NCBI GenBank assembly: GCA_026982235.1
Contig: JALSHM010000397.1
Span: forward strand, 1 to 49,507
DNA: 49,507 nt
Reading direction: 5' to 3'
DNA from: Robiginitomaculum sp.
GTDB taxonomy: Bacteria; Pseudomonadota; Alphaproteobacteria; Caulobacterales; Maricaulaceae
In this document: positions 6,703 to 29,360 of the stretch, piece by piece
Layout of the letters: the number at the start of each line of letters is the position of its first letter
Numbering within the stretch: the stretch's first letter is position 1
Notes under the pieces: model-generated
What the model was told of the DNA's origin: nothing
What the model saw: only the letters and a program-made list of their open reading frames with translations
Database searches by the model: none
Program-made: the position numbers and the translations under genes

Positions 6703-6752
6703 GTGTTTGAGTATAGCAGAAAAAGGGTAAATAAAAAGTCCTAAATTCCGCA

Positions 6753-8220: not shown

Positions 8221-8290
8221 TTTAATCTCCTTAGTATCATAAATTAGATAGCCATCGGCATGGCGTCAGCCATGCCAATGTTACTGATTG

Positions 8291-8602: not shown

Positions 8603-8638
8603 AATTTTCTCCGTGCGTTTGGTTTTGATGAAACAGTA

Positions 8639-8863
8639 TTAAGCCAGCTCACGTTTGGCTTTCTTAAATCCATGATCGCTAGCCAGAAAGCCAGCTATCA
8701 TGGACGGGATAAGCGCGCCAACGGGCTGTTTCTCGCCGTAAGTTTGCTCATAGATTTGTGCATAGATTTCCAGATCGCCCATAAGGTCGGGCGGCAGCGC
8801 CACCGTTATTTTCGCTGGTTTCATGTCTGGTAGTTTAGCGAGTTTTAGTTTTGGTTTGGACAT
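8639..8863 (-). CDS. DUF2274-family small protein
   Basis: 74 aa, located just downstream of trbI. Homologous to the 553-777 product. Confidence 0.75.
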   Translation of the reverse strand: MSKPKLKLAKLPDMKPAKITVALPPDLMGDLEIYAQIYEQTYGEKQPVGALIPSMIAGFLASDHGFKKAKRELA

Positions 8864-8938
8864 AGTTTTCTCCTTGTTTCGCCCCTACCGGAGCCTTTTC
8901 CGATTATTTTATGTCCACCGGACATAAAATTTGACACG

Positions 8939-11259: not shown

Positions 11260-11260
11260 T

Positions 11261-11950: not shown

Positions 11951-11973
11951 TTCATTTCTCCTATTCTTGCTGA

Positions 11974-13311: not shown

Positions 13312-13313
13312 GA

Positions 13314-14039
13314 TTAGCGCCCTCTCTTTTTGCCGTAGGCATTTCTAGTGCCGACAAAGCGCTTGTGTTTCTGGCGGGATTCTTTCTCGATGGCGAGTTG
13401 GCGAGAGTGTTCAAGCGCTTGGGCGCGATATTGCACAGCGTCCATCTGCTGCATTTGCATGATTTGTTTGATGAGCAATGCTAGGAGTTGATTGCCTGCT
13501 TGCGCTACGGATAAATTCCCTGTGGAGCTTTGGCTTTCTGTCACCAGCTTATCTAATGTTCGCGCATCCACCTTGACGCTGCTAATCATTTTGGATTGCA
13601 TGACGATGGCTTCTTCAAAAGCAACACGGGAGTTCTCCCATTGTACCTCTGCATTTGCCAACATTTCATCATCTGACATATCGGCGTATTCTTGTGGATA
13701 ATGCTCCCGCATAAGATCGCGGCTACGCCCAACCTCATAGCTGACATTTTCTGCTTCTTCTGTGAGCGTGGCTATTTCTTCTAAGATACGCAGCAATTCA
13801 TATTGAGCATTATAATCAAGCTTAGCTAAATCCTTGGCCTGGCCAATCAGCATGCGGGCTTCATTACGAAGTTGGCTGACCTGTTGACGTATCTGGATCA
13901 GCGTTCGTGATGCCGTATAGAGATTTTGCACAAAGTTCTTAGGGTCAAAGACGATACCGCCAAATTGCGCTTGCGCGGCCTGCGCGAATGACAGCAGCAT
14001 CAAAAAGACAAGAATGAATGATTTTATTCGGCGGCGCAT
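13314..14039 (-). CDS. trbJ: TrbJ/VirB5 T4SS protein
   Basis: I place the start at 14039 (MRRRIKSFILVFLMLLSFAQAAQA, a signal peptide). The product is a coiled-coil-rich periplasmic protein. Its start overlaps the trbE end by 16 nt. Confidence 0.85.
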   Translation of the reverse strand: MRRRIKSFILVFLMLLSFAQAAQAQFGGIVFDPKNFVQNLYTASRTLIQIRQQVSQLRNEARMLIGQAKDLAKLDYNAQYELLRILEEIATLTEEAENVSYEVGRSRDLMREHYPQEYADMSDDEMLANAEVQWENSRVAFEEAIVMQSKMISSVKVDARTLDKLVTESQSSTGNLSVAQAGNQLLALLIKQIMQMQQMDAVQYRAQALEHSRQLAIEKESRQKHKRFVGTRNAYGKKRGR

Positions 14040-16501
14040 ATGTCCTCGCTTTCTGTTGTAGTTTCTCTCCAAGGCAATGCTTCATTTGTGAGATTAAATT
14101 CAGCGCCCATAAGGTCAGCGGCCCAATTAAGGGATTTTGCCCGTAGCCATTCACTGGCGAATTGTTCTGTCCCGTACGTATCAATCACTGCATCAATACC
14201 CGCATGTTCACTCTCCGAACCTGCGCCGCAAAATGCCAAAGCCACTTCGCCAAGCCCGAGGTCGAACAAGCGGTTACCTGCTCGTGACTGAAAGTAATAA
14301 TCTTGCTTGGGAATGCTGGACGCTATGATTTCTATCTGGCGTTTATTCAGGCCAAAGCGTTCGTATATTTCCGCTTGCTGTGGTTCCATCGCGCGGTCAT
14401 TGGGTAGGAATATTCGGGATGGGCAGGATTCGATAAGCGCAGGCGCAATATCGCTGCTGGCAATGTCGGCTAAGGATTGTGTCGAGAATATTACTGACAC
14501 ATTTTTCTTACGCAGGACTTTCAGCCATTCGCGTATCCGCTCTGCAAAGAATGGGTCATCTAGAAACACCCAAGCTTCATCGAGTATGAGCAGGCTGGGC
14601 TTGCCGTTAAACCGCGCTTCTAATCTGTGAAACAGATATGTTAGCACGGGTAGCACAAGCGCCTTGGAGTGCATCAATGTTTCCATCTCAAAACATTGCA
14701 TATCGCCCGCTTTGAAGGATTCAGTATTTCCGTCGAGTAAATGACCATAAGCACCATCAAGTGTATAGGGTTGCATGGCTTGGCGTAATTTATTAGATTG
14801 TAGGAGCGCGGATAATCCTGTCAACGTTCTTTGCTCGGTGGGCGCAGTGGCTAGGCTTTGTAAAGCGCTCCACACTGCTTCTTTAATATCTGGGTCAGTT
14901 TCTAAGCCTTCATTACGGAGCAACCCCAATATCCAATCAAGCGCCCATGCTATCTCGCCATCGTCATCAATCCCTTTTAGGGGTTGGAAGATGATAGAAT
15001 TTTCTGCACCGAGGTCATAATAATCACCATTCAGTGCAAGCGTTGCGGCGCGCGCAGAACGGCCTTTGTCAAAGACAAATACTTGCGCGCCTTTATAACG
15101 GCGAAACTGCAAGGCGAGCAGTGACAGCAAAACCGATTTACCCGCGCCCGTTGGCCCAACGATGAGCATATGCCCGACATCGCCCTGATGGGTAACAAGA
15201 CGAAACGGCGTGTGACCTGCCGTTGTTGCATGCAGCAAGGGCACATCACCCAAATGCTCATTCCGCTTTGGCCCAGCCCATATGGCAGACAGCGGCATAA
15301 GGTGGGTGAGATTTAGGGTATGGATTATTGGTTGTCGGATATTGGCGTATGGATTGCCGGGCAGCGTGCCGAGCCAAGCATCAACCGCATTGACACTTTC
15401 ATGGATAGAGACAAAACCCCGTCCATTGACAATGCGCTCAATTGAACGGATTTGCTGCTCGGCTAAGAGCGCGTCTTTGTGACTGACTACAATACAGGTG
15501 GTGAGATAGCCAAAACTCACATGATCTGCCCCAAGGTCTTGCAGGGCCTCATCGGCATCGAGGGCTTTGTTATCGGCGTCGCTATCAACCAATGCCGATG
15601 TTTCGTTAAACAGGCTTTCCCGCAGTAGCGACATGACCGATTTTCGTTTAGCAAACCATTGGCGGCGAAATTTACCGATGACCTTTGTAGCCTCTGCTTT
15701 ATCCATCGGTAAATACCGTGTCATCCAGCGGTATGAGAATCCTAAAGAATTTAGCTCATCCAATATTCCCGGCGTTGTTTCTCCCGGAAATCCGCGCACG
15801 GTAATCATGTGTAGATTTTCACCGCCAAGCCTTGGCACGAGACCGCCGACTAAATCAGCCCCGCCAATGAGGGCGTCAATATAGGCGGGTGTTTCTGGAC
15901 AGGTGATTTTGTGTTTGTTTGGCGATATGCAAGAGTGGAGGTATGTGAGCGTTTCGGTATCATCTAAGAATTCCGCTAATGGGAACAAGCTTCCCATTAA
16001 ATCTAAGCAGCGCTCGCTTTCCGTAATGAAGGCCGTGAGATGATCGGACGCAGTTTCTGTTAATTCGTCATCTGGCTTTTCTATAAGCAGACTCTCGGCG
16101 CGCTTGGCGCTATCGGCTGGCGGTAGATAGGCAAATGTCAGATAGTATTCACTTTCAAAATGATGTTCGGATTGTTCAAATTGCCCGCGTCTCTCTTGGT
16201 CTACAATCCACGCCGCTGGGTCTTTGAATGCGCTATGCGGATAGTCAGGCGCAGCGTGGCGGCACGCTTCGAAATACAAAGCCCATCCTGAACCAAAACG
16301 CCTTAGCGCGTTATTGATACGTGCACATGTAGCGACGAGTTCTTCCTCAGTTGCGCTGCCCAAATCCGGTCCGCGAAATCTTGCCGTTCTTTGGAAACTG
16401 CCGTCTTTATTGAGCACTACGCCCGGCGCTATCAAGCACGCCCAAGGGAGATAGTCTGCCAGTCTTGCAGGTTGCTTTTGATATTCAGCGAGATTCAACA
16501 T
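14024..16501 (-). CDS. trbE: TrbE/VirB4 T4SS ATPase
   Basis: 825 aa with Walker A GPTGAGKS and Walker B LLILDEAW. The N-terminus is TrbE-like. Confidence 0.95.
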   Translation of the reverse strand: MLNLAEYQKQPARLADYLPWACLIAPGVVLNKDGSFQRTARFRGPDLGSATEEELVATCARINNALRRFGSGWALYFEACRHAAPDYPHSAFKDPAAWIVDQERRGQFEQSEHHFESEYYLTFAYLPPADSAKRAESLLIEKPDDELTETASDHLTAFITESERCLDLMGSLFPLAEFLDDTETLTYLHSCISPNKHKITCPETPAYIDALIGGADLVGGLVPRLGGENLHMITVRGFPGETTPGILDELNSLGFSYRWMTRYLPMDKAEATKVIGKFRRQWFAKRKSVMSLLRESLFNETSALVDSDADNKALDADEALQDLGADHVSFGYLTTCIVVSHKDALLAEQQIRSIERIVNGRGFVSIHESVNAVDAWLGTLPGNPYANIRQPIIHTLNLTHLMPLSAIWAGPKRNEHLGDVPLLHATTAGHTPFRLVTHQGDVGHMLIVGPTGAGKSVLLSLLALQFRRYKGAQVFVFDKGRSARAATLALNGDYYDLGAENSIIFQPLKGIDDDGEIAWALDWILGLLRNEGLETDPDIKEAVWSALQSLATAPTEQRTLTGLSALLQSNKLRQAMQPYTLDGAYGHLLDGNTESFKAGDMQCFEMETLMHSKALVLPVLTYLFHRLEARFNGKPSLLILDEAWVFLDDPFFAERIREWLKVLRKKNVSVIFSTQSLADIASSDIAPALIESCPSRIFLPNDRAMEPQQAEIYERFGLNKRQIEIIASSIPKQDYYFQSRAGNRLFDLGLGEVALAFCGAGSESEHAGIDAVIDTYGTEQFASEWLRAKSLNWAADLMGAEFNLTNEALPWRETTTESEDICAAE

Positions 16502-16761
16502 GACAGATAACCTTTGTGTTTGATGTGACGAGCCAGCACGTCCATGAATTTAGGATCGCGTTTGGCGAAATAGACGGATAGGGAATGTGAAATGACCCAA
16601 TAGACGATCCCGACGATGGCAAGCTGGAGGCCAAGCCCGAGGGCGGCGGCAAGCGTACCGTTGAGAATCGCTGCCGTTCGTGGTGCACCGCCGAGCAGAA
16701 TTGGTTCGGTTAGCGAACGGTGCAAAGGTATGGAAAAACCGTCTATCATTCCATTTGGCAT
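16495..16761 (-). CDS. trbD: TrbD/VirB3 T4SS protein
   Basis: 88-aa small membrane protein that overlaps the trbE start. Confidence 0.85.
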   Translation of the reverse strand: MPNGMIDGFSIPLHRSLTEPILLGGAPRTAAILNGTLAAALGLGLQLAIVGIVYWVISHSLSVYFAKRDPKFMDVLARHIKHKGYLSC

Positions 16762-17075
16762 TAGATCAATGCTCCGCCGCTAAACTTGAAGAAGGACATG
16801 AAGAAGCTGGTAGCCGTGAATGCAATGGACAGGCCAAAGACAATTTGAATCAGCTTACGAATACCGCCGCCTGTGTCACCAAACGCTAGAGTCAGACCTG
16901 TCATAATGATAACAATGGTGCCGAAGATTTTAGCAACCGGGCCTTCAATAGATTTAAGAATTTTAGTCAGCGGCGCTTCCCACGGCATGGACGAGCCAGA
17001 TGCAAAGGCGGGTTCGGCGAACAGAACAAATGCGAGGATAATAAATATCAGATAAGTAAGTTGACGGGTGGACAT
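16761..17075 (-). CDS. trbC: TrbC/VirB2 pilin precursor
   Basis: 104 aa with a signal sequence and two hydrophobic helices. Assignment also rests on operon position. Confidence 0.85.
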   Translation of the reverse strand: MSTRQLTYLIFIILAFVLFAEPAFASGSSMPWEAPLTKILKSIEGPVAKIFGTIVIIMTGLTLAFGDTGGGIRKLIQIVFGLSIAFTATSFFMSFFKFSGGALI

Positions 17076-17084
17076 AGTTTTCTC

Positions 17085-18041
17085 CTAAGGTTTAGTTTTT
17101 GGGATAAGTTTGCACCCTACGGGCATGGTAAGTAGGGTAAAATTGGGTGCGAGCGGTTCAAAATCATATTCATCGCCATGCACGCCAAGAACGCGGGCAA
17201 TAGTCTCGACGCGGCGGGACAAGCCTCGCCCAGAGATAAAGACGATGACATTTATGGCTTCGGCAATCAGTGTGCGCGGGACAGAGCTAGCGCCTTCCAA
17301 GATAAGCTGCTCGATACGGTATATTCCTGCTTCGGCAGAATTGGCGTGTACGGTGGCAATACCGCCGGGGTGTCCCGTGTTCCACGCTTTGAGCATATCA
17401 AGCGCTTCGGGGCCGCGTACCTCGCCAACGACGATACGGTCGGGGCGTAGGCGCAATGTGGAGCGAACGAGATCTGCGAGTTTTACGTCTTGGCCATGTG
17501 TGCGCAAAGCTACCGTATCTTCTGCGGCGCATTGCAGTTCTCTGGTATCTTCGAGGATAAGTACGCGGTCATTGCAGTTGGCGATTTCGGCCAAGAGTGC
17601 ATTGGCAAAAGTAGTCTTGCCGCTACTTGTACCGCCAACGATCAGGATATTGAGTTTGGCGTTTACTGCATATGACAGAGCATCTGCTTGCGCCTTGGTC
17701 ATAGTTTCCGCTTCTACATAATCACCCAGCGTGAAAATCTTAGCCGCACCCTTACGGATAGAAAAACATGGGGCGGAAACTACTGGCGGGAGCAATCCTT
17801 CAAACCGTTCGCCCCCAAAAGGCGGGATGCCGGGGAGTTCTGCACTTACGATTGGTCTATTAGTCGTCACCTCTTGACGGATATGACTGGCGACTAATTT
17901 AACGATGCGTTCTGCATCAGGCGGTGTAATCATTTCGCCCGTGTAAACCCGTCCTTCGCCGTGACGGTCTAGCCATAATTTGCCATCTGGATTGACCATA
18001 ATCTCAATGACGTTTTTATCATCTAGCGCCGCGCCAATCAC
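17085..18041 (-). CDS. trbB: TrbB/VirB11 T4SS ATPase
   Basis: 318 aa with Walker A GGTSSGKTT and a VirB11/GspE-like fold (RPDRIVVGEVRG, His box). The track uses a GTG start, so the exact start is uncertain. Confidence 0.9.
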   Translation of the reverse strand: MIGAALDDKNVIEIMVNPDGKLWLDRHGEGRVYTGEMITPPDAERIVKLVASHIRQEVTTNRPIVSAELPGIPPFGGERFEGLLPPVVSAPCFSIRKGAAKIFTLGDYVEAETMTKAQADALSYAVNAKLNILIVGGTSSGKTTFANALLAEIANCNDRVLILEDTRELQCAAEDTVALRTHGQDVKLADLVRSTLRLRPDRIVVGEVRGPEALDMLKAWNTGHPGGIATVHANSAEAGIYRIEQLILEGASSVPRTLIAEAINVIVFISGRGLSRRVETIARVLGVHGDEYDFEPLAPNFTLLTMPVGCKLIPKTKP

Positions 18042-18091
18042 TGGCCATTGCGGAGCGGAGCATTTCCAATGTGCGGCTTGCGGTGACGGGA

Positions 18092-18622
18092 TTAAGCTGA
18101 GACATGTTTGGCCTCCGCTTTTACTTTTTTCGCTGTAATTTTCTTGAACTTCTTCCCATCAAGCTTTGCGAGAAGCTCTAATTCTTCTTTCGTAAAATAC
18201 TGGTCTTCTGTCGCCATGACATCTGCCAAGGCGAGTTTCATAATCCGCCCATCAAGCTTCATCTGCGTTTTGAGCTGATCTACAAAATTATTGAAGTGTA
18301 ATGCGCCCTTGGCTTGGCGGCGGTCTTGCTCGCCCTCTTTAATATCTGGTGCCAGTGAAAAGAAATAGCGCAAAAACAATGAGAACGCCTCTGTCAGCAT
18401 ATTCAAATCACGGGAGTGCCGATAATCATGACGGGTCATAAGGTCTAATCGGCGAATTAATTTGGCATCACGGCGGTCATCTCTCTCATAAGAAAAATAT
18501 GAGCTAAGCGCTTTATCCACTATGAGCGATAACGATGCGTCTGGCTTTTTAGCCGCATCATGCAGACGCATATAATTAGCGGCAGAAACACGAGGACGGA
18601 TGCGGGGTCTGTGTACGGTCAT
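18092..18622 (-). CDS. Ribbon-helix-helix (CopG-like) protein between traG and trbB
   Basis: 176 aa. The N-terminal RVSAANYMRLHDAAKK...LSLIVDKAL fits an RHH motif. The position is the usual one in Trb-type ICEs. Confidence 0.55.
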   Translation of the reverse strand: MTVHRPRIRPRVSAANYMRLHDAAKKPDASLSLIVDKALSSYFSYERDDRRDAKLIRRLDLMTRHDYRHSRDLNMLTEAFSLFLRYFFSLAPDIKEGEQDRRQAKGALHFNNFVDQLKTQMKLDGRIMKLALADVMATEDQYFTKEELELLAKLDGKKFKKITAKKVKAEAKHVSA

Positions 18623-18623
18623 A

Positions 18624-20645
18624 TTATATTTCCAATTCTGGGTCTTCAGTGCTGCTCATCAAATGGGCTTGCTGCACGAGTGCTTGGGGGCTAACGAAGG
18701 CGCTAAGCTCCAGCAATGGAAGCTCTTGGTCGTCCATGTCTTGCGCTTGAGATTTTTCACTATCGTTGTTTTTCTTAGGCGCATGCTCATGGCCTTTAAT
18801 TTTTGGAGAGCGTTCTTTGCCGCTAGCAGTAGTTTGTTTTTCTGATTTGTACTGGGCAAAAAGGCGATCATCCACGAGCCGTGTCTGCTTGCCCCAACGG
18901 CAATCCTGCGGAGGGGGAAATCCGGTTGGATCATCTGGGGCGTTTACGGGGGGAGCCATGACACGGCCCGTGAAATTCTTATCGGTGTAATAGGTAATTT
19001 TGTTGGCTTTAATCGGCGCTGTGCCAGAGAGCAGTATTATTTCCTCATCAGCAGGAAGCTGCATCACTTCGCCCGGCGTTAAGAGCTGCCTTGCCGTTTC
19101 TTGGCGAGAGACCATGACGTGAGATAACCACGGCGCCAATCTATGGCCCGCATAATTACGCATGGCCCGCATTTCTGTGGTGCTGCCAACCGCGTCCGAA
19201 ATACGTTTGGCTGTGCGCTCGTCATTAGTGGCGAAAGCAATTCGCACATGGCAGTTATCAAGAATGGCGTTATTGGGGCCATAAGCTTTCTCGATCTGAT
19301 TTAGGGATTGCGCGATTAAGAAAGCGCGCACGCCGTAGCCAGCCATGAACGCCAGTGCACTTTCAAAGAAGTCGAGCCGCCCAAGTGCTGGAAACTCATC
19401 AAGCATAAATAAGACTTTGCGGCGTGACGGATTGTTATTGGTCTCAAGGCTTTCTGTAAGGCGGCGGCCAATTTGATTTAATATCAACCGTATTAACGGC
19501 TTGGTGCGGGATATATCAGATGGCGGCACGACTAGGTAGAGCGAGACTGGCTTGTCCGCGTCCACTAAGTCGCTAATCCGCCATTCGCATTTGGAAGTCA
19601 CCTCGGCAACAGTCGGGTCTCTGTAGAGAGACAAGAAACTCATCGCCGTTGACAATACACCTGAGCGTTCGTTTTCAGATTTATTGAGGAGTTCACGCGC
19701 TGCTTGTGCAACAACGGGATGGGCTTCGGCTTTATGACTATTACCGAGGTGATTGGTTTCCATCATCGCCCAAAGCGTTTTCTCAAAAGAGCGTTTGGGA
19801 TCAGATAGGAATGAGGCTACGCGGGCTAAGGTCTTTTCTTCCTCCGCGTAGAGAATATGCAGGATTGTGCCGACGAGTAATGAGTGCGCGGTTTTCTCCC
19901 AATGGTTACGGCGTTCTAGCACGCCGTCTGGGTCAACCAAGATGTCAGCAATATTTTGTACGTCGCGGACTTCGCATTCACCTTTGCGTACTTCAAGCAA
20001 GGGATTGTATTTTGCACTCGCCGCATTGGTAGGGTCAAACAATAGGCAGTGAGAGAATGTCGAGCGCCATCCTGCGGTAAGCTGCCAGTTCTCGCCTTTA
20101 ATATCGTGAATGACCGTACTGCCTGTCCAAGATAATAGCGTCGGAATAACAAGCCCGACACCTTTTCCCGAACGTGTGGGCGCAATCGCCATGACATGCT
20201 CTGGCCCGTTATGGCGTAGATAATTGTCGTGGGCTTGGCCGAGGAATACACCGTCCTCAGCAAACAAGCCTGCTTGCTTCATCATGGACTTGTTTGCCCA
20301 CTGCGATGAACCAAAGGTGGTTAGCTTCTTAGCCTGCCGTCCGCGCCAGACAGATCCGGCAACGGCAAACAATGTTCCGATGAAACCACCGCCCGCAGCG
20401 ATTTGCCCGCCTTTGGAGAATACGCTCGGCGCATAGGCATCAAATGAATACCACCACTCAAATAATCTCCAAGGAAAGTATATTTTTTGATTTGAAACGG
20501 TAAACCAAGGCGCGCCCAGATAAGCATCATAGTCAAACTGCAAAGCCACCCATTGGGTCGCATACCATGTGGTCAAAATGATGGTCGTAAAGACCAAAAC
20601 AATTTGTCCGATAAGTATTGATTGCGGTGACATAGGCAAGTCCAT
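18624..20645 (-). CDS. traG: TraG/VirD4 type IV coupling protein
   Basis: About 673 aa with N-terminal TM helices and a TraG/VirD4 NTPase core (APTRSGKGVG Walker A). Candidate starts are TTG 20672, ATG 20645 and ATG 20633, and the choice is uncertain. Confidence 0.92.
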   Translation of the reverse strand: MDLPMSPQSILIGQIVLVFTTIILTTWYATQWVALQFDYDAYLGAPWFTVSNQKIYFPWRLFEWWYSFDAYAPSVFSKGGQIAAGGGFIGTLFAVAGSVWRGRQAKKLTTFGSSQWANKSMMKQAGLFAEDGVFLGQAHDNYLRHNGPEHVMAIAPTRSGKGVGLVIPTLLSWTGSTVIHDIKGENWQLTAGWRSTFSHCLLFDPTNAASAKYNPLLEVRKGECEVRDVQNIADILVDPDGVLERRNHWEKTAHSLLVGTILHILYAEEEKTLARVASFLSDPKRSFEKTLWAMMETNHLGNSHKAEAHPVVAQAARELLNKSENERSGVLSTAMSFLSLYRDPTVAEVTSKCEWRISDLVDADKPVSLYLVVPPSDISRTKPLIRLILNQIGRRLTESLETNNNPSRRKVLFMLDEFPALGRLDFFESALAFMAGYGVRAFLIAQSLNQIEKAYGPNNAILDNCHVRIAFATNDERTAKRISDAVGSTTEMRAMRNYAGHRLAPWLSHVMVSRQETARQLLTPGEVMQLPADEEIILLSGTAPIKANKITYYTDKNFTGRVMAPPVNAPDDPTGFPPPQDCRWGKQTRLVDDRLFAQYKSEKQTTASGKERSPKIKGHEHAPKKNNDSEKSQAQDMDDQELPLLELSAFVSPQALVQQAHLMSSTEDPELEI

Positions 20646-20949
20646 TTCTAAGTTGGACTTTAGGCTGGGCAAAATTTCACGTTTCGTCTAGGAGGATAAG
20701 AGGGCTAGAATAGGGACGTTCTGGGACCTCAAGGGATATAGCGGGAAAATCGGGAGATTTTATTTTCCAGAAATACTTCGCCAAGGATTTAAGACATCAA
20801 TGCCCGCAGTATCACAATCCTAACCCTGTAGTGAATAACCGTGGCTGCGATCAAATTATCTGAACTATATATTTCCATTATGAGTGATTAATAAAAGTTG
20901 CAACGAAGCACCAAATGAGGCTAACTTCGGTATTTTCCTCATAATTAAA

Positions 20950-21113: not shown

Positions 21114-21449
21114 ATGAAAATTGAACATTTGACTCCAAATAACGCAATATTGCAAGAATTGGGCACACGGCTTGCCCGGATTCGCAAACAGCAGGGTTAC
21201 TCACAACTGCGTTTGGCCAACGAAGCCGGAATCGGGGTGGCTACCCTTCGGCGCATAGAAGCGGGCCATGACAGCCAGATGGAGACGTGGCTGAAGCTTA
21301 TGAAATCTCTCCAGATGATCACCGCCATTGATGATCTTTTACCTAAGAATTATAGCTCGCCAATGGCAGAAGCTTTATCCGACAGAAAAACTAGAAAGAA
21401 AAGAAATAACGCGCCTTCTGGTTCTATATGGGGCGACGAAAAACCATGA
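21114..21449 (+). CDS. hipB: HipB-like XRE-family HTH antitoxin
   Basis: 111 aa with LARIRKQQGYSQLRLANEAGIGVATLRRIEAG. Its stop overlaps the hipA start (ATGA). Confidence 0.8.
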   Translation: MKIEHLTPNNAILQELGTRLARIRKQQGYSQLRLANEAGIGVATLRRIEAGHDSQMETWLKLMKSLQMITAIDDLLPKNYSSPMAEALSDRKTRKKRNNAPSGSIWGDEKP

Positions 21450-22741
21450 CCACAGCTACAATAAAATTATGGGGAACCACCATCGGCTATGTTTCGATGG
21501 ACAAGGCTGAGAAGTTTGCACGTTTTGAGTATGACCCCGACTTTGTAACCCACGGCATAGAGCCCGCGCCATTAATAATGCCTTTAAAGGCACGGCGCAT
21601 CTATCAATTTCGAGGTCTTGAGCCGCACTCATTCCACGGAATGCCAGGCCTCCTCGCCGATAGCCTACCTGACAGGTACGGACAGAAACTAATCAATGTT
21701 TGGCTGGCCCAAACAGGGCGCAAGCCAGAAGAGTTTAATGCCGTCGACCGTTTGTGTTACACAGGAAAAAGGGGAATGGGCGCATTAGAATTTGAGCCCT
21801 CCACAATTACCACGCCAACAAAAGATAAAAGCCTCGAAATCAAAGAGCTGACCGAACTGGCATCTATGGCATTTGCCAGTAAGGAAACGCTCAATGCTAA
21901 ATTGACTGCCCATGGTAGTGACAGCGCCCTTCTCGATATCTTAAGTGTCGGCACATCGGCTGGCGGCGCCCGCGCCAAGGCAGTGATCGCATTTAACCCA
22001 TCCACAAAACAAGTGCGTTCGGGTCAACTTGAATTGCCTGCTGGCTTTGAGCATTGGCTCATCAAGTTTGACGGTGTTGAATTTAGCGGTGACTGGGGCG
22101 TTGCAGACCCATCGGGATACGGCCTGCTTGAATACAGCTATTATCTGATGGCGCAAAAATGCGATATCAACATGACGGAGTGCCGAATATTTTCTGAAAA
22201 TGGTCGCAACCATTTCATGACGCGCCGATTTGATAGGGGCGATGACGGATCCAAAAAATTTGTGCAAACACTCGCGGCTCTCGCGCATTATGATTATTAC
22301 GAAAGCGGGCTCTACTCTTATGAGCAAATCTTTATGCTCATGAAACAATTGAAAATGCCGCAAGCCGCTATTGAGGAACAATTCCGCCGTGTCATTTTCA
22401 ATCTTGTTGGCTGCAATCAAGATGATCATGTTAAAAATTTCTCATTCATGATGGATAGGAAAGGACGCTGGGATTTGTCGCCAGCCTATGATCTCTGCCA
22501 CGCAGAAGGAAGTGACTTCACCCGGTTTCACCAACTCAGCACAAATGGCAAAACATCCGGCTTCACACGCGGCGACATCAAAGCCCTTGCAGATTATGCA
22601 GGTCTTCCGCGAGGCCGAGAGAACACTATATTACAACAAACAATCGACGCCTTTTCAGGCTGGCAGAATGTTGCGGAGGACCTCAACATTCCCTTAAATT
22701 TGCAGAGCCATGTTCTGCGCACACTGAGGTTAAAATGGTAA
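21446..22741 (+). CDS. hipA: HipA-family serine/threonine kinase toxin
   Basis: I place the start at the ATG at 21446 (MTTATIKLWG). It has a HipA N-terminal coupling domain and the C-terminal catalytic motif NQDDHVKNFSF...SPAYDL. Confidence 0.9.
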   Translation: MTTATIKLWGTTIGYVSMDKAEKFARFEYDPDFVTHGIEPAPLIMPLKARRIYQFRGLEPHSFHGMPGLLADSLPDRYGQKLINVWLAQTGRKPEEFNAVDRLCYTGKRGMGALEFEPSTITTPTKDKSLEIKELTELASMAFASKETLNAKLTAHGSDSALLDILSVGTSAGGARAKAVIAFNPSTKQVRSGQLELPAGFEHWLIKFDGVEFSGDWGVADPSGYGLLEYSYYLMAQKCDINMTECRIFSENGRNHFMTRRFDRGDDGSKKFVQTLAALAHYDYYESGLYSYEQIFMLMKQLKMPQAAIEEQFRRVIFNLVGCNQDDHVKNFSFMMDRKGRWDLSPAYDLCHAEGSDFTRFHQLSTNGKTSGFTRGDIKALADYAGLPRGRENTILQQTIDAFSGWQNVAEDLNIPLNLQSHVLRTLRLKW

Positions 22742-22829: not shown

Positions 22830-23345
22830 TCACCCTAATATTTTTTCAAATTTCGTATTGGTGCCTTCCTGAGATAGATATCCTTCAAGTTGCTTAGATA
22901 GAGACAGAGCAATTTTTTTATTGCTTGTAAGCACGAAAATTGGTGCTCCAGTCCGCTTCTCTAAATACGCTCGCAAAATATTCTTGAGCTCTGACCACTT
23001 AGACCATTCTCTACCTTGTTCTTTTGAAGTGCTAAGCGAAACCCTGCAGTATTCAATTCCTTCGGATTCGAATGCTTTAAGTGCCATCTCAGTTGACGTG
23101 AACACGGAAAAAAAATCAGGAAACATCCTTGCGTCAATTGCCAATTTTGGTTCCAGCCGCATCCTCTCCCTTTTGAAAGCATGTGCCGAAATATCAGAGA
23201 TTGGAACCATGAATATCCGAATGATATCCAAGTCCTCGAATAATGACAGTTGTCGAGCGTTTTCAAAACCCCATTCTGTTCTGTTCTGGTCTGCTTTGTC
23301 GGAGGCAACAGAGCTATAAACAAGTCGTAATTTGGGGTTAGCCAT
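22830..23345 (-). CDS. Unassigned 171-aa protein translationally coupled to the deaminase gene
   Basis: Its ATG at 23345 overlaps the deaminase stop by 8 nt. I recognise no clear motif. There is a weak resemblance, by eye only, to DUF488 (IDARMFPDF...EGIEYCRVSL). Confidence 0.6.
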   Translation of the reverse strand: MANPKLRLVYSSVASDKADQNRTEWGFENARQLSLFEDLDIIRIFMVPISDISAHAFKRERMRLEPKLAIDARMFPDFFSVFTSTEMALKAFESEGIEYCRVSLSTSKEQGREWSKWSELKNILRAYLEKRTGAPIFVLTSNKKIALSLSKQLEGYLSQEGTNTKFEKILG

Positions 23346-24957
23346 CTTGAAACTCCAGTGCTAATTTGGCTTCCAATTCAGGGTATGCGTCTTTGTAGAC
23401 GTCTGTCGGACACCCCCATTGAGGTTCCCCAATTGACAACTCTCCAGAGACTTTGTCCTTATAACTCCTATCTTTCAGGAAAACCCTTCGATAGAGCCGC
23501 GGTGCGACACCCACAAACGGGCGAAACATTACATGCGTACTACCTTTTGAGGGCGGCTCCCAGTCGCTCGACTCAGTTGTAATGGAGTCCGCATGCAGAT
23601 CGGTTGCTTTGCTCTTTGGATATGGTTCGATGAACTGCACCTCGTCAATTCCCGACGCGACGATGTGGCGAGCGCAATAATGGCACGGATAGGTTGTGAC
23701 GAACATTCGACATGCGCGTGGGGACGTTCCTGATATTGCTGCAGATAGAATTGCGTCCATTTCAGCATGAACCGCCCGACTAAATTCAATTAGCCCCCCA
23801 ATTCGGGTGCTGCGAATCTTTTTTATTAATTCTGCTCTGTCCTTATCCGTGGTCAGATCGGGAAATTCGTCTATCAACTCTTCAATGATGTTGTTTTGCT
23901 CTCGATTGCTGCTGCAGAAAACAGTTTCGCGAAATGCGCACCGTTCATCCCCCTCAATATCAATGGAAAAACTTTCCCCGTACAATCCCCCACCTGCTCG
24001 GGGAACATCATTAGCTCCAGTTGCAATGATATTTCCTCTTGCATCCACCAACGCGGCGCCAACCTGGCGTGAAAGGCAAGCGCTTCTCATTTGTGCGGAA
24101 CGTGCTTGATGCATCCCTGTTTCCGCAATAGTCGGGCGGATTATCTTGGATTGAGTGATTAGGTTCACAAAGCGGCGGAGGTGATCGTTCATCCCCGTTA
24201 TAGCAAGATCTTCTCCCGCGTCCTGAGAGTTATCAACAAAAAAATCTGCCTCATGAAAGGTGTCAGAAACATGTTGGCCGTGCTTTTCCGGCGCATCCTC
24301 ATCGCGAGTAAGAAAATTTTTGACCTGCTGTTTTACCGATTTGTCACTCCATTTCGCTCTATCAAATAAGTTTTCGCGAATACGGCGCTCGCGTTCGACC
24401 GGGTCGCAAACAATCCCAAGAAGTGAAAATGCGTCTTGGTAGACCTCTCGAAGCAATGCAACTTCGGCCGGATGGCGAAGAGAGTCCATGATATAAGCTC
24501 GGTGTTTTCCGTCCGGTTCAACGGGCTCGCCAGAAAACGACTTATCTTGAAGCATTGCACGTCGTTCAGCAATCTCCCTTAGAATGAGTCGGGCAACAGC
24601 GGAATGGTCCTCGGGCAAGCTATACAGCTCCCCTTTCCGCAATTCATCGCCGCGGTCTTGCATTTTTTGGATATTTTCGAGCGATTTCCGTGCGTCCACA
24701 GCTGGAACCATTTGGTCGATATTTTCAGCAGCACGTCGAATAAGACCACTCGCTTTAATGATTTCAACTTCGAAATCACTTTCTTCGAGAAAATTTTTCA
24801 ATATCTTAGCTGCGGTTCCAGAACCTGCTCCAGCGGGCCCGACAATTGCAACGAAGACTTCGTTTGTACGAAGATCTCGCAGAACGTCTTGGCCCGCTTG
24901 GGCACTGGATGATCGTTTTGCGTGCTTCTTCGGAATTTTGATTGGATCGGAGGTCAT
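23338..24957 (-). CDS. P-loop NTPase + cytidine/dCMP deaminase fusion (anti-phage dCTP deaminase / AvcD-like)
   Basis: 539 aa with an N-terminal Walker A (VGPAGAGSGT) and C-terminal zinc-deaminase motifs (VHAEMDA and PCHYCA). Confidence 0.85.
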   Translation of the reverse strand: MTSDPIKIPKKHAKRSSSAQAGQDVLRDLRTNEVFVAIVGPAGAGSGTAAKILKNFLEESDFEVEIIKASGLIRRAAENIDQMVPAVDARKSLENIQKMQDRGDELRKGELYSLPEDHSAVARLILREIAERRAMLQDKSFSGEPVEPDGKHRAYIMDSLRHPAEVALLREVYQDAFSLLGIVCDPVERERRIRENLFDRAKWSDKSVKQQVKNFLTRDEDAPEKHGQHVSDTFHEADFFVDNSQDAGEDLAITGMNDHLRRFVNLITQSKIIRPTIAETGMHQARSAQMRSACLSRQVGAALVDARGNIIATGANDVPRAGGGLYGESFSIDIEGDERCAFRETVFCSSNREQNNIIEELIDEFPDLTTDKDRAELIKKIRSTRIGGLIEFSRAVHAEMDAILSAAISGTSPRACRMFVTTYPCHYCARHIVASGIDEVQFIEPYPKSKATDLHADSITTESSDWEPPSKGSTHVMFRPFVGVAPRLYRRVFLKDRSYKDKVSGELSIGEPQWGCPTDVYKDAYPELEAKLALEFQDG

Positions 24958-25127
24958 TGGTTCATATCAACTTGGTTTTCAGTTACTTTGTCATCTTTAG
25001 TCAACGCGATGGCTGTTAGTCAATCAAATTGATTTTAAGGTTTACCCTCATAGCAAAAATATCAGCAAATTACACTAGCTATGTTCATCACTGGAAATCC
25101 TAACAATTCCTTTTACCCCGAAGCCAA

Positions 25128-27053
25128 CTAAGAAATCTCTCGCCCCTTATTCAGTGTCCATGAAATCGAATTCCCCCGCATGATACCTGACACAGCTTTG
25201 CCTCGATTACGCTCAAGTACATCCCGCCAAGGCACTAGAGAAAAATCTTTGGCGCGTTCTATGATCGCGTATTTTCCGCTTGGGCGGGTGATGGCTTCTC
25301 TGTAAGTGCCGTTTATTCTGGCTGCGCCCTCCATACCCAAATATGCTTTGCCCAATGTGGCCGAGAGTTTCTTCGCCGCACATGCTAGGTCGCGCCGTTC
25401 GAGTTCGTCTAAATGTTTTGCACCTAATGGCGTGTTTTCATTTTCTAAAATACCTTGCTGAACCAAGTATTGGGTGCGTGCAGATTTTGCGGCCTGAACA
25501 TCACTGCCAAACCCATCGTTTACTGGCGCATTATCAGCCATTATTTCTACATCAAGCCATGTGCGCCCCATCGTTGTTTGTAGCTCTTTGAGTCGCAATC
25601 GCGACTGTACATTTACATCGACAGGCTTTGCTCTGCTTCTGAACTTTTCATAAGACTTAGCCCTATCCAAATAATCATGGGGTATTTTCCATGAGCCGTC
25701 TTTGTTTCGGGTTACATGTCCTGCGCGGCGCAATGCTTCCAGCCTACGGATATGCGCTTGAATATACTCTGGCCGTGCGCCTTGGTCAGACGCTTGGTGT
25801 ACCGCCGGGCTGTAGTCGCCATTTCGTTTTGCGGCTAGCTTATCAATCGTCAAGTCAGATTGCTTTGGTTCAATATCAGCGGGGCTAACAGTAACAACCA
25901 TGCCTATTTTTACATCTTCAATGTTCTCTCGGCGGCCTGCTTTGACATAAATGGCTTCACCCTCGGTGGTATCAATAATGAGATAAGCATTGTCATTTAT
26001 ATCGTCTAAGGAACCCACTGCAAGAATTTTTCCCGTTAAAGGTTTTGCTCGCACGTCATGAGGATCATAAACCACATCGAATTTATCGCGGCGATTTAGT
26101 TTTAAATCTTCCAATGCGTGATGATAGGCTTTTAAAATGTCACCTCGCTCTCCCATACTGCGCAGTGTATTTTCCATTTTTATATCAAGATGCCATACGC
26201 CTCGTTTTTCCTGATAAGCTAGCCCCATACGGCTTAGGGTTTTAAGACGCGCAATATCTAGGCGGCGTGTCCATTCCGTAGCTCGTTTTGGCGGCGTTGA
26301 TATATCTACAACATTGGCGTCTGCCATGCGAAGTAAGGCCCTATCAAGCTGCGTAAATCTCTCTTTGGTCACTTCGTTAGCAAGTTTCACGCCCGCTTCA
26401 TATTGATTGATGGGGCCAAGTTCTAACGTCACCATTTCTTCCGCCCGCTCCCGCATCCCGTATGAAATATATTGGCGAGGAATAACGAGATTTTTACCAT
26501 CATCATTTTTACCACCAATGACTATGTGCGTGTGCGGCGTTGCGGTGTCATAATGATTAGCCGCCACCCAATCGAGGCGTGTGCCTAAATCTTCTTCCAT
26601 CTGCGCCATAATGTCCCGCGTGAATGAACGTAAATCAGTTATCTCTTTGCCGTCTTCGGCAGAAACAATAATTCTAAATTGGTGACGATCATTTTTTCCT
26701 CGTTTTTGAAACTCATCTGCATCAGCAATGTCATTATGTTTGTCGTAGATACTGCCGCGTTCATTATCCGGGGCGGCGTTGTCACGAGCGATATAATCCA
26801 AGTGAAGGGATTGCGTCTGTGCGCCTTGTCCGCCCATTTTAACAAGGTTCACTTTTACGATAACCCGCCGCGAGAAAAACTGCTCCCGAACGGCGCTGCT
26901 ATTCCCGTTCAAACGCAGTCCATTCTTTGGCAAAGAAGCAGCGCCTGCCGCTCTCTTTACCCGTCCGGCAAAACTTATCATTCTACGAGAGCCACTCGGC
27001 GAATAAATACGCCCAATTTTAATCTCAAATATGTTTTCACCCTTGCCGCTCAT
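25128..27053 (-). CDS. Conjugative relaxase (VirD2/MobP-like with a DUF3363-type C-terminal region)
   Basis: 641 aa with the histidine triad motif HYDTATPHTHIVIGG. Assignment also rests on its position between traG and traF in the ICE backbone. Confidence 0.85.
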   Translation of the reverse strand: MSGKGENIFEIKIGRIYSPSGSRRMISFAGRVKRAAGAASLPKNGLRLNGNSSAVREQFFSRRVIVKVNLVKMGGQGAQTQSLHLDYIARDNAAPDNERGSIYDKHNDIADADEFQKRGKNDRHQFRIIVSAEDGKEITDLRSFTRDIMAQMEEDLGTRLDWVAANHYDTATPHTHIVIGGKNDDGKNLVIPRQYISYGMRERAEEMVTLELGPINQYEAGVKLANEVTKERFTQLDRALLRMADANVVDISTPPKRATEWTRRLDIARLKTLSRMGLAYQEKRGVWHLDIKMENTLRSMGERGDILKAYHHALEDLKLNRRDKFDVVYDPHDVRAKPLTGKILAVGSLDDINDNAYLIIDTTEGEAIYVKAGRRENIEDVKIGMVVTVSPADIEPKQSDLTIDKLAAKRNGDYSPAVHQASDQGARPEYIQAHIRRLEALRRAGHVTRNKDGSWKIPHDYLDRAKSYEKFRSRAKPVDVNVQSRLRLKELQTTMGRTWLDVEIMADNAPVNDGFGSDVQAAKSARTQYLVQQGILENENTPLGAKHLDELERRDLACAAKKLSATLGKAYLGMEGAARINGTYREAITRPSGKYAIIERAKDFSLVPWRDVLERNRGKAVSGIMRGNSISWTLNKGREIS

Positions 27054-27071
27054 AGTAGTTTTTCCGGGACA

Positions 27072-27225
27072 TAGCGGGAACTAGCGGGACGTGGACTCTC
27101 TTTTTTCCCTTGTAGCATGGGGCATAGCGCCAAAAGTGTGGACTCTCCAAAATGGAGTGTGGACTCTAAAAAACGATGTGCAGACAATGACTTAAGCCCG
27201 TTTGGGCCCAGTCCTTTATCTTGCC
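27072..27225. promoter_or_regulatory. Candidate oriT / relaxase promoter region with direct repeats
   Basis: TAGCGGGA occurs twice (27072-27079, 27082-27089). GTGGACTCT occurs three times (27091-27099, 27138-27146, 27159-27167). TATCTTGCC at 27217-27225 resembles the RP4/Ti nic core ATCCTG/C with one mismatch. The region lies directly upstream of the relaxase start. Confidence 0.4.
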
Positions 27226-27261
27226 GTACACATATCCCCTTAAAACCACCCATAATTTCTC

Positions 27262-27789
27262 CTATTCCCGCGAATGTGTAATTTTGCGATTTCCAAGATA
27301 TTTAACTTTTCCCAAAATATTTTGGCCACGTACGGCACCAAAATAACGGCTGTCATATCCGTCCTGCACATCGGGTGAAACGAGAAAGTACTCATCCATT
27401 TTCAGTGTAAAGCAGCCCGATAATTTTGGCATGTCGCGCCCCAAACTATCCTGCGACAGGCTAATGATAACAGGATAGTTTGGGACGCTAACCCGGTTAT
27501 TATTGACACATATTTGAGTGCCAGAACTTGCCCAAATGGTTTTAATCATGGGGTATTCATAGGGTAGATAGCGGCGTTCATCCGCGAGTTTCCGTGCCCA
27601 GTTTGGCGCGTAAGCGGCCACTTGGTCACCGACTTTAGGCGGCGTTCTATCCGCTAATTTATACCATCCGATAGGCGCACTTGCGCTTGGATTATAAAGA
27701 AGTTTTGGTCTTGGTGGGAAAGATATTTCCGTTGTTGTAGCAACGATTAACATCGTAATACCAACGGCGATTAAAGTGTTTTTAAGCAT
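27262..27789 (-). CDS. traF: TraF-like S26-family conjugative signal peptidase
   Basis: 175 aa with an N-terminal TM, NPSASAPIGWY and DSRYFG motifs. Confidence 0.8.
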   Translation of the reverse strand: MLKNTLIAVGITMLIVATTTEISFPPRPKLLYNPSASAPIGWYKLADRTPPKVGDQVAAYAPNWARKLADERRYLPYEYPMIKTIWASSGTQICVNNNRVSVPNYPVIISLSQDSLGRDMPKLSGCFTLKMDEYFLVSPDVQDGYDSRYFGAVRGQNILGKVKYLGNRKITHSRE

Positions 27790-28224
27790 TTACACCTCCA
27801 GTATTTTAGAGAATTTCCGGATTGGACGGGCTATGCGGACGGCTAATTGCATTTGCCGCCAATGACTTTCTGGGACATTTTCCAAAGCACAACCGACCTG
27901 TTTCTCAAGGCTATCAAGCTGTCTGAGAATATATTTCATGGCTTCTGTGCCGTGAACATTGAGGAGAATATCAGCGCCGGGGCTTATACCTGTAATGCGG
28001 GTTATCTTGCCTGCCGCACATGTTTTGCAAACATAAAGCCGCCAATCCGTTGTGCCAAAACTGTTGGCCTGCCAGCGTATATAACCAAAAATTTGCTGTG
28101 GGCTGAACGCATACAGCGTCCGCGCCCGGTCAAGTCTAACTTGATATGTTGGTATGCCAAACCGGATACGGTGATTGCAATGCGCCTTGACGAACTTGCC
28201 TTGTACCAATGTTAAATCAGACAT
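27790..28224 (-). CDS. DUF2840-family ICE backbone protein
   Basis: I place the start at the ATG at 28224 (MSDLTLVQ...), overlapping the upstream HTH gene by 8 nt. The family call rests on synteny and general sequence resemblance. Confidence 0.55.
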   Translation of the reverse strand: MSDLTLVQGKFVKAHCNHRIRFGIPTYQVRLDRARTLYAFSPQQIFGYIRWQANSFGTTDWRLYVCKTCAAGKITRITGISPGADILLNVHGTEAMKYILRQLDSLEKQVGCALENVPESHWRQMQLAVRIARPIRKFSKILEV

Positions 28225-28435
28225 AGGTTTTGGCCTTAACTTGTTTCTCGCAGTAATCAGAATTCTTAGACCATCTGAGCAAATCGCGAACATGGTATAA
28301 GATCAATCCGCCGTGCTTACGGTATTCTGGGCCATCACCTTTCCAGCGCATATTGGTCAAAGTTTTAGGCTGCACACGCAATAAACGCGCGGCTTCCTTG
28401 GTCGTGTAGAACGGGCTTCTTTCTGGTTTCTTCAT
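28217..28435 (-). CDS. Small HTH (excisionase/MerR-like) DNA-binding protein
   Basis: I place the start at 28435, preceded by GGAG. The motif is YTTKEAARLLRVQPKTLTNMRWKGDGP. Confidence 0.65.
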   Translation of the reverse strand: MKKPERSPFYTTKEAARLLRVQPKTLTNMRWKGDGPEYRKHGGLILYHVRDLLRWSKNSDYCEKQVKAKTYV

Positions 28436-28580
28436 GGCAAACTCCATAATTATCCGATAGCTAAACAAACATTTGCGGAACTATCGGGATAATTAAGGCA
28501 CGTTTAGGGACGCTTGGGGAGTGTCGTTTTTTCGATTTCGAAAAACCGATACACCAGCTACTCGCCTGAAAGGGGAAGAG

Positions 28581-29360
28581 TTATTCGAGCAGGGAAAGGT
28601 ACTTTCCATTGCGATATTCTTCGGCGTTTTTATATATTCTTCGTACCTGTTGCTTAAGCGCAGAGTGGCCATCTCCCCATTCCATATTCACATATTCTTC
28701 GCCCATGAGGGCAATGGCTATATCGCGGTAATCACCGCCATCTCTTTTAGCGCGCAATGCAATAAGATATTTTTGCAATCGTTCCGTATTCCTACGATAG
28801 CCAATTTGACTTAATTTACCGCCGCGTGAGCGGTGCAAAGCAATAATTTGATGGATGGATTTCATTCGCTTATTTGAGTGCAATCCGCCATCTACACGGA
28901 ACTCTACCAATGCTTTATCGTCGATTGGGTGCGGGCTATCACAATACAGTTGAAACCAGTAACGCCTACTTTTTAGCACAATATGTCGGCTCCCATTTAT
29001 GCTTTCAAACAGTGTCTTACGACAACAAAACTCTTGCAGCATAACCGTATCTGACGTCCGCCCAAAATTACGGTTATCTGTCTGTGTGTCATCTTGTGGC
29101 CGTCCAAGGCGAACATGAACGGTAGCTGGATAGTATGAGGGCTTCCAAAAGACATCTGCTTCCATCGCGTTCAAGTCGGGATCAACAAAGAATAATAAGC
29201 CCCATTTTCGAGCTTTTTCATACCGCCTATTACCAATAAGTAGGCGGCAACCACTTTCTAGTTCAACCATTTTTGGACTGTATTTTAGGCCGTCAATGCA
29301 GTCGTGGCGGTAGTCCATATTTTCGCGCAACATATCCCATGCCCATGCCGCGCTTGGCAT
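28581..29360 (-). CDS. DUF2285-domain transcriptional activator-like protein (FseA-like)
   Basis: 259 aa. The N-terminal AWAWDMLRENMDYR resembles the LAWEFLRRNPxY motif of DUF6499/DUF2285 proteins from alphaproteobacterial ICEs. Confidence 0.6.
   Translation of the reverse strand: MPSAAWAWDMLRENMDYRHDCIDGLKYSPKMVELESGCRLLIGNRRYEKARKWGLLFFVDPDLNAMEADVFWKPSYYPATVHVRLGRPQDDTQTDNRNFGRTSDTVMLQEFCCRKTLFESINGSRHIVLKSRRYWFQLYCDSPHPIDDKALVEFRVDGGLHSNKRMKSIHQIIALHRSRGGKLSQIGYRRNTERLQKYLIALRAKRDGGDYRDIAIALMGEEYVNMEWGDGHSALKQQVRRIYKNAEEYRNGKYLSLLE

Follow-up and report, generated by a model that had tools for sequence, protein, structure and literature searches.

The stretch of DNA analysed here (the window) comprises 49,507 nucleotides (nt) of contig JALSHM010000397.1 from Robiginitomaculum sp. 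and carries on its reverse strand a two-gene locus, in which a gene for an anti-phage dCTP deaminase of 539 residues (aa) is followed, in an overlapping reading frame, by a gene for a 171-aa protein, termed the partner below. The deaminase was scored by the curated NCBIfam model NF041025 ('anti-phage dCTP deaminase') at 436.9 bits, above the curated cutoff of 400, and was also matched by the PADLOC dCTPase model PDLC02373 (1.6e-164). The Pfam domain dCMP_cyt_deam_1 (PF00383) was placed at aa 278-442 (5.5e-16), and AAA/kinase hidden Markov models (HMMs) gave generic and weak matches at aa 26-91 of the kinase-like domain. The motifs quoted for this protein in a preliminary description of the window were all located (VGPAGAGSGT, aa 39-48; VHAEMDA, aa 396-402; PCHYCA, aa 424-429). 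In an alignment of 27 deaminases, G43 of the glycine-rich loop, H397-A-E399 and P424-C-x-x-C428 (including C425) were invariant. Mutation of the equivalent glycine-rich loop in the E. coli enzyme led to loss of defence, and both the kinase-like and the deaminase motifs were required for defence by the single 576-aa protein form, for which T7 escape mutants mapped to gp5.7, a factor that shuts off host transcription (bioRxiv 10.1101/2021.04.26.441389). As judged from its sequence, the 539-aa protein is a full member of the AvcD/dCTP-deaminase defence family with intact catalytic motifs, in agreement with the identity first proposed for it. By homology, it would convert dCTP/dCMP to dUTP/dUMP during infection and starve phage DNA synthesis.

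The coding-strand junction between the two genes reads CTGGAGTTTCAAGATGGCTAA, with the partner ATG at 23345-23343 and the deaminase TAA at 23340-23338. The 8-nt overlap between deaminase stop and partner start given in the preliminary description was thereby confirmed in its coordinates, and it is kept in relatives. An 8-nt overlap of the form RTGnnTRA was present in 13 related loci, most of which carried GGAG or GGAGG at the same place as the Shine-Dalgarno-like GGAG of the window, whereas more distant loci showed an ATGA overlap (4 nt) or values of 0, 11 or 19 nt. The arrangement predicts a tight translational coupling of deaminase and partner that is conserved across relatives.

The partner belongs to an unnamed family. 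It was not matched by Pfam, NCBIfam or PADLOC models, and PHROGs returned nothing useful. A word-indexed search of 5.8 billion clusters yielded 12 partner clusters (169-171 aa, 47-56% identity), and when 1.84 billion representatives (50% identity clusters) were searched exhaustively with a profile, 45 matches at E<=1e-3 resulted, nearly all of 163-180 aa. One of the latter, P0037 (3397 aa), is a repetitive adhesin and was discarded as a false positive, leaving ~44 real clusters. Overall, homologues measured 163-187 aa and were 16-56% identical to the 171-aa protein; the deaminases of the corresponding loci were 44-79% identical to that of the window. Across 46 family sequences, R73 and P76 were invariant and F57, F78, A88, F92 and Y99 nearly so. 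Among close relatives, the ratio of nonsynonymous to synonymous substitution rates (dN/dS) was 0.09-0.31 for the partner and ~0.05 for the deaminase. The partner thus evolves ~2-3 times faster than the deaminase, which is typical of antitoxins. Since its dN/dS lies in this range, the open reading frame (ORF) is translated and constrained by purifying selection, and together with the existence of homologues and the conserved overlap this effectively disposes of the concern that it might be a chance or untranslated ORF. No partner was detected in phage contigs, where three pattern matches were all due to chance. An origin of the partner as a split-off deaminase domain was also considered and ruled out: deaminases that lack a partner have no extra region, and the sole indel specific to the partner-bearing deaminases spans 7 residues.

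Broader loci were gathered with a hand-made degenerate DNA pattern. A P-loop deaminase lay directly 5' of the partner, on the same strand, in every partner locus with enough upstream DNA (~30 independent loci), and the linkage, which is strict and ancient, persisted at 16-25% partner identity. The pair was found in the named genomes of Gluconobacter sp. Dm-62, Roseinatronobacter, Paracoccus, Sulfitobacter, Pseudogemmobacter and two alphaproteobacterial metagenome-assembled genomes, on many metagenomic contigs, and on a Pseudosulfitobacter plasmid, in which RefSeq labels the two genes 'anti-phage dCTP deaminase' and 'hypothetical protein'. Paracoccus sp. S1E-3 and Sulfitobacter delicatus DSM 16477 are among the carrier strains. 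Very distant partners were likewise situated behind a deaminase (P0053 and, on its TARA contig, a further pair; P0055; P0025; P0044). The flanks of the ~30 loci were mutually unrelated and included genes of conjugative elements or integrative and conjugative elements, type I restriction-modification (R-M), SIR2, Kiwa/GmrSD, ThiF/multiubiquitin and chromosomal rlmN, so that the partner is the sole conserved companion of the deaminase across these loci. The question raised in the preliminary description, whether partner homologues are enriched next to P-loop deaminases, was answered by this survey: they stood beside one in every informative locus and nowhere else. A motif scan of a species-level genome collection recovered 7 species, all of them Alphaproteobacteria, and of the 58 plasmid records that contain a deaminase homologue, 1 has the partner and another 1 a fused form. 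The view that the partner is a passenger gene unlinked in function, or an untranslated ORF, finds some footing in the want of a recognised domain in standard HMM libraries, but is effectively refuted by the comparative data, as synteny is kept to 16-25% partner identity despite unrelated flanks and several overlap types, dN/dS is well below 1, the AlphaFold2 core is confident (predicted local distance difference test, pLDDT, above 90), and no member of the family stands outside this setting, even the single 'orphan' retaining a 33-aa deaminase remnant.

This apparent orphan (L132/L133) consists of an intact 172-aa partner homologue with the remnant, a deaminase C-terminus, upstream of it (51% identity, E 8e-6). 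The two contigs (4895-5519 in both) come from one sample and diverge downstream, with an ArdC anti-restriction gene nearby; the idea that the partner serves there as an anti-defence gene was dropped, since the deaminase remnant marks a decayed locus. A truncated remnant of both genes was found in L085. In L020 (Pseudogemmobacter bohemicus, 6380-8516), the deaminase is distributed over three ORFs with an intact 174-aa partner downstream, which reflects either a decaying locus or sequencing errors. Counting L026, described below, a deleted or frameshifted deaminase with an intact partner was seen in three lineages (L020, L026 and L132/133), and the reverse case was not seen in any. This one-sided decay of the deaminase goes in the direction expected of an antitoxin.

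In a neighbour-joining tree, 20 partner-bearing deaminases were monophyletic, and eight partner-less homologues, from Photobacterium, a small E. coli plasmid, Pantoea, V. nigripulchritudo, Azospirillum, Zymomonas, Rhodococcus and Mycobacterium, fell outside this clade at 29-36% identity. The partner HMM did not match any of these eight loci even at E<=10, and no deaminase-only locus was found inside the partner-bearing clade among the ~30 loci. Many 4.6-kb plasmids of Klebsiella and E. coli carry little beyond a partner-less dCTP deaminase module and a replication gene.

For family members of Vibrio and enterobacteria a different companion has been described. AvcI is a ~174-nt RNA that is encoded immediately 5' of avcD and co-transcribed with it (bioRxiv 10.1101/2021.03.31.437871). 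It keeps AvcD inactive in Vibrio and enterobacteria, and four AvcD homologues caused filamentation or toxicity unless the cognate AvcI was co-expressed (bioRxiv 10.1101/2021.03.31.437871; PMC10511110). The AvcI elements of these homologues share no sequence similarity with each other (bioRxiv 10.1101/2021.03.31.437871). At the AvcI position, a small upstream ORF annotated as 'hypothetical' was present in the Photobacterium and E. coli plasmid loci, both gammaproteobacterial (L027 and L028; Table 1), and these two ORFs are probably mis-annotated AvcI-like RNAs. In the window, the 170-nt region upstream of the deaminase, the expected site of such an RNA, gave no Rfam match at E<=1, folded no better than its shuffles (z-score +0.74), contained no detectable promoter-like site and showed no evident conservation when compared by eye, with no alignment, to the upstream regions of relatives. 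In several relatives, an ORF predicted by the gene caller overlaps the start of the deaminase, so that no intergenic space of AvcI size would remain.

The fold of the partner was examined by profile comparison and modelling. An AlphaFold2 monomer built from 46 sequences reached a pLDDT of 85 and a predicted template modelling score of 0.74 and displayed a five-strand β-α-β core; the pLDDT exceeded 90 for the core (aa 41-170) and was 57-65 for the N-terminal 40 residues. A faint DUF488-like pattern had been noted in the preliminary description on the basis of the motifs IDARMFPDF and EGIEYCRVSL, both of which were located in the partner. This hint is probably right at the level of remote homology: hhalign aligned the partner family with a bona fide DUF488 alignment at a probability of 89.4% (E 2.1e-6, 78 columns). 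The aligned span joins partner aa 40-116 to DUF488 positions 5-88, that is, the N-terminal half, with the C-terminal half unaligned, and the matched elements comprise the first strand, the D-[TV]-R-x-x-P loop, G-I-x-Y-x-x-x-P and a subsequent Trp. Membership at the Pfam level did not hold: the DUF488 model (PF04343) gave no match to the window partner at E<=1 and matched only 1/46 family members, at E 0.011. Both families appear to share a β1-α1-β2-loop-α2-β3 core and have a comparable length of about 170-180 aa. The C-A-E...W-R-C-H-R-S motif, invariant in DUF488 and presumed to form its active-site cysteine loop, occurred in 0/46 partner-family sequences, none of which shared a conserved cysteine or other obvious nucleophile. 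The partner further differs from DUF488 in lacking G-H-S, S-R, GG-x-R and W-x-N-x-x-F-R-G-Y-A-D and in bearing an additional conserved N-terminal peptide. Foldseek searches with two AlphaFold2 partner models against PDB and BFVD gave no match at E<1e-3, so the partner was not filed under any solved fold family; weak recurrent matches (template modelling (TM) score 0.35-0.46) were to Cys-phosphatases, tetrapyrrole-type methylases, signal recognition particle GTPases and generic Rossmann-like proteins. A search of the family profile against the sequences of solved structures returned a chance match only, and hhalign against E. coli YeaO by itself gave no useful signal. Burroughs and Aravind reportedly grouped DUF488, in 2023, with RapZ-C and DUF4326 in the rhodanese-phosphatase superfamily, and the Pfam entry name 'DUF488-N3a, active DUF488-N3 subclade' is in line with this placement. 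RapZ-C is an RNA- and metabolite-binding adaptor domain.

The N-terminal segment (aa 1-40) carries the motifs KLRLVYSS and W-x-FENA-x-QL-x-LF-D. Its residues L8, Q32, L35 and F36 were invariant in two family alignments, and Q32, L35 and F36 were conserved to >=90% in a distant partner subgroup. Being conserved yet poorly ordered in the monomer model, the segment looks like a peptide that would become ordered upon binding, from which we infer docking onto the deaminase.

Taken as a whole, the locus is read as a two-gene version of AvcD/DcdV-type nucleotide-depletion defence. As a tentative reading, held at somewhat less than even confidence, the partner would be an obligate regulatory subunit that docks via its N-terminal peptide and holds the enzyme in check, a protein taking the place of the AvcI RNA. 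It is favoured because the family is toxic by default, because the upstream region is variable and no RNA was detected in it, and because the partner is the sole conserved companion of the deaminase. As the tested AvcD homologues are toxic by default, the partner-bearing clade should also need an inhibitor. According to this scheme, the conserved stop/start overlap would cause the partner to be made in step with the deaminase, onto which the flexible peptide of aa 1-40 would dock. The cysteine-less DUF488-like domain (aa 41-170), whose invariant D-x-R-x-x-P loop may form a phosphate or nucleotide pocket, would then hold the self-toxic deaminase inactive in uninfected cells. Infection would free the enzyme, either because host shut-off halts the resupply of a labile partner or because a ligand enters the DUF488-like pocket. 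The docking, the sign of the regulation (inhibition) and the trigger are what we infer rather than observe.

Several observations weigh against a role of the partner as inhibitor. An AvcI-like RNA may still exist upstream of the window deaminase, since AvcI RNAs have no conserved sequence by which they would be recognised. The asymmetry of decay is not significant (3/3 disruptions in the deaminase, p ~0.44), because the deaminase gene is ~3 times longer than the partner gene. With the partner encoded 3' of the toxin and translationally coupled to it, its dosage would be at most ~1:1. Helix-turn-helix, ribbon-helix-helix and AbrB domains were not found in the partner with Pfam and NCBIfam, and the AlphaFold2 model shows a single α/β domain with a flexible N-terminus; as a DNA-binding domain is lacking, autoregulation in the manner of classical type II antitoxins is not expected. 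The monomer model also has no significant structural neighbour in PDB or BFVD (Foldseek). Finally, fusions of the partner to TIR and to a domain resembling uracil-DNA glycosylase (UDG) suit a docking, adaptor or sensor module better than a labile antitoxin.

In these fusions, observed in two lineages, the partner domain is joined N-terminally to another domain and still lies directly behind the deaminase. On Rhizobium gallicum plasmid pRGM101a, the partner domain (E 2.4e-17) is followed by TIR_2 (E 4e-18) and ~280 more residues, and the fusion protein retains the conserved segment of aa 1-40 at its own N-terminus. The fusion ORF starts at L026:5573 and overlaps the deaminase stop by 4 nt; the RefSeq entry (WP_239599786.1) seems to place the start 105 nt too far 3'. 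At the same locus (NZ_CP092345.1, 3959-8982), a frameshift divides the deaminase between two ORFs, and a 531-aa protein without a recognisable domain follows the TIR fusion with a 4-nt overlap. On metagenomic contig L122, a 397-aa fusion (P0048; 3311-4504) overlaps a 612-aa deaminase by 11 nt. Its C-terminal region gave a weak match to the UDG superfamily (PF03167, E 0.0015, below the gathering score), with UDG-like motifs discernible by eye and no match among NCBIfam models or PDB sequences. Together with neighbouring genes for Kiwa (KwaB, KwaA) and for type IV restriction (GmrSD), the deaminase and the UDG-like fusion make up a defence island (L122, 1483-10945).

Such fusions argue for a less probable but serious rival account, in which the partner, as an adaptor docked on the deaminase or a sensor of infection, would activate or extend the system instead of inhibiting it. 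In its stand-alone form, a nucleotide, RNA or DNA-end signal bound in the DUF488-like pocket would switch the deaminase on, whereas in the fused forms the complex would gain a second effector, either a TIR NADase or a UDG-like glycosylase directed at DNA that contains uracil. The partner domain is N-terminal in both fusions, which is the usual position of sensors in defence proteins, its rapid evolution would suit a phage-facing sensor, and among DUF488 relatives RapZ-C provides an example of an adaptor domain. However, an activator seems unnecessary given the default activity and toxicity of the tested AvcD homologues, a mere add-on predicts deaminase-only loci within the clade, which numbered 0 among ~30, and the UDG assignment is weak. 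Of the roles offered in the preliminary description, antitoxin or regulator and second effector or sensor, the fusions favour an adaptor or sensor, and the default-on toxicity of the family favours an inhibitor. A broader proposal, which we consider rather unlikely, holds that the partner is a modular deaminase-docking sensor/adaptor that defines a multi-effector nucleotide-depletion family, gating the deaminase when alone and coupling it to a UDG-like or TIR effector when fused. If true, the combination of dCTP-to-dUTP conversion with a UDG-like enzyme would represent a bacterial analogue of the vertebrate AID/APOBEC-UNG axis.

It is improbable that the partner is instead an enzyme or ligand-binding co-effector which, as a relative of the rhodanese/Cys-phosphatase superfamily, acts on the deaminase products (dUTP/dUMP) or on uracil-containing, abasic or nicked DNA ends, thereby harming phage DNA or sparing host DNA. 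Such an activity would be consistent with the remote homology to DUF488, with the weak similarity to Cys-phosphatases, which include RNA 5'-triphosphatases, and with the link to uracil in DNA provided by the UDG-like fusion. In the model, moreover, D/E71, R73 and Y99 are predicted to cluster at the C-terminal ends of the β-strands, where the ligand site of Rossmann-like folds is located. The missing Cys-His-Arg motif and the want of a conserved nucleophile argue against catalysis, every structural match had E > 1e-3, and a co-effector would leave both the strict translational coupling and the conserved N-terminal peptide unexplained.

Among the closest known systems is AvcID (DcdV/DifV), with which the regulated deaminase proposed here shares the architecture of a P-loop kinase-like and a zinc dCMP/dCTP deaminase domain, recognition by the same curated HMMs and a two-component organisation on mobile DNA, the partner probably filling the role of the co-expressed inhibitor. 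The two differ in that AvcI is a 5' non-coding RNA, whereas the window companion is a 3'-encoded, translationally coupled protein, and no AvcI-like element was detectable upstream of the window deaminase. The window deaminase is only 33-36% identical to the Photobacterium (L027) and E. coli plasmid (L028) homologues and falls in a separate clade; V. cholerae AvcD was outside the alignment. The single-gene anti-phage dCTP deaminase (Tal et al.; DefenseFinder/PADLOC, NF041025) is of the same family, with the essential motifs present, but is modelled as one 576-aa protein, while the partner-bearing clade adds a gene that defence HMM libraries do not recognise. The locus is also reminiscent of type II toxin-antitoxin modules with the toxin first (higBA-type order) in its adjacent, overlapping and co-translated genes, its location on mobile DNA, its faster-evolving second gene and the three cases of toxin-only decay with the partner kept (p ~0.44). 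In contrast to such modules, the partner has no DNA-binding domain and is fused to effector domains, which is unusual for antitoxins, and neutralisation by the partner is hypothetical.

No description of a protein partner of dCTP deaminase was found in the searchable literature, which did not cover one relevant comparative-genomics paper, and the partner is treated as unknown by defence HMM libraries and RefSeq. Within this literature, the earlier suggestion of an undescribed two-gene variant is borne out. Defence by dCTP deaminases is currently annotated as a single gene, or as a gene plus AvcI RNA in Vibrio and enterobacteria; the partner could reveal a second, independently evolved gating of the same effector, and it sets a cysteine-less branch of the DUF488-like fold in a biological context for the first time. 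The TIR and UDG-like fusions point to a possible wiring of nucleotide depletion to the loss of NAD+ or to the excision of uracil. For defence-finder tools, the pair is best handled as one system.

A conjugative element carries the pair as cargo in the window, in a slot between the coupling protein and the relaxase. The element encodes a TrbE/VirB4-like ATPase, a TraG/VirD4 coupling protein, a DUF3363 relaxase, a TraF S26 peptidase, a DUF2840 protein and a RovC-like DNA-binding protein. The pair is flanked on one side by the coupling protein and a hipBA module and on the other by the relaxase, TraF and DUF2840 genes. The hipBA module directly adjoins the deaminase pair in convergent orientation and consists of a hipB-like helix-turn-helix gene (111 aa) overlapping a hipA-like kinase toxin gene (437 aa; HipA_C 1.6e-44). 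The locus of Gluconobacter sp. Dm-62 lies in a related element with the same set of element genes.

Table 1. Positions of the features discussed, in the window unless another locus is named.
Feature	Position	Strand	Remark
Partner protein, 171 aa	22830..23345	(-)	unnamed family tied to the partner-bearing deaminase clade
Partner N-terminal segment, aa 1-40	23226..23345	(-)	proposed docking peptide
Partner α/β core, aa 41-170	22836..23225	(-)	DUF488-like in N-terminal half; hhalign and AlphaFold2
Loop D71-x-R73-x-x-P76-D-F-F	23109-23135	(-)	family-invariant
Overlap of 8 nt, ATGGCTAA	23338..23345	(-)	partner start codon and deaminase stop codon
Shine-Dalgarno-like GGAG	23353..23356	(-)	within deaminase coding sequence, 7 nt 5' of partner ATG
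Anti-phage dCTP deaminase, 539 aa	23338..24957	(-)	P-loop kinase-like N-domain and zinc cytidine/dCMP deaminase C-domain
Walker-A-like loop GPAGAGSGT, aa 40-48	24814..24840	(-)	kinase-like domain; read in sequence
Zinc deaminase domain, aa 278-450	23608..24126	(-)	Pfam PF00383 and PF14437
HAE motif	23761-23769	(-)	zinc deaminase domain
PCHYC motif	23674-23688	(-)	zinc deaminase domain
Region upstream of deaminase, 170 nt	24958..25127	(-)	expected site of an AvcI-like RNA
hipBA module	21114-22741	(+)	
Conjugative-element genes	8939-20672 and 25128-29360		
TraG/VirD4 coupling protein	18624-20672		
DUF3363 relaxase	25128-27053		
Small ORF 5' of partner-less deaminase, L028	832-1014		4.6-kb E. coli plasmid
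Small ORF 5' of partner-less deaminase, L027	2741-2911		Photobacterium plasmid

Further associations were noted at individual loci. Genes of a type I R-M system (hsdR-hsdM-hsdS) lie directly 3' of the pair in many metagenomic relatives, among them L003 (8001-13624), L010 (919-6540), L013 (1945-7431) and L005 (3748-9371). The 4-nt overlap between partner stop and hsdR start in L003 and L010 points to a single five-gene operon of pair and hsdRMS. Defensive dGTPases within type I R-M operons were reported by Tal et al. (bioRxiv 10.1101/2021.04.26.441389). A 10-kb TARA Oceans contig (L022) carries two divergent deaminase-partner pairs (451-2786 and 7584-9951; partner HMM E 2.8e-38 and 8e-18) with an IS110-family transposase between them. 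On Pseudosulfitobacter plasmid NZ_CP054602.1 (L025, 6522-8815), the pair adjoins genes for a ThiF-family adenylyltransferase and a multiubiquitin-domain protein, which may constitute another conflict system, as well as a relaxase, a type IV coupling protein and IS630.

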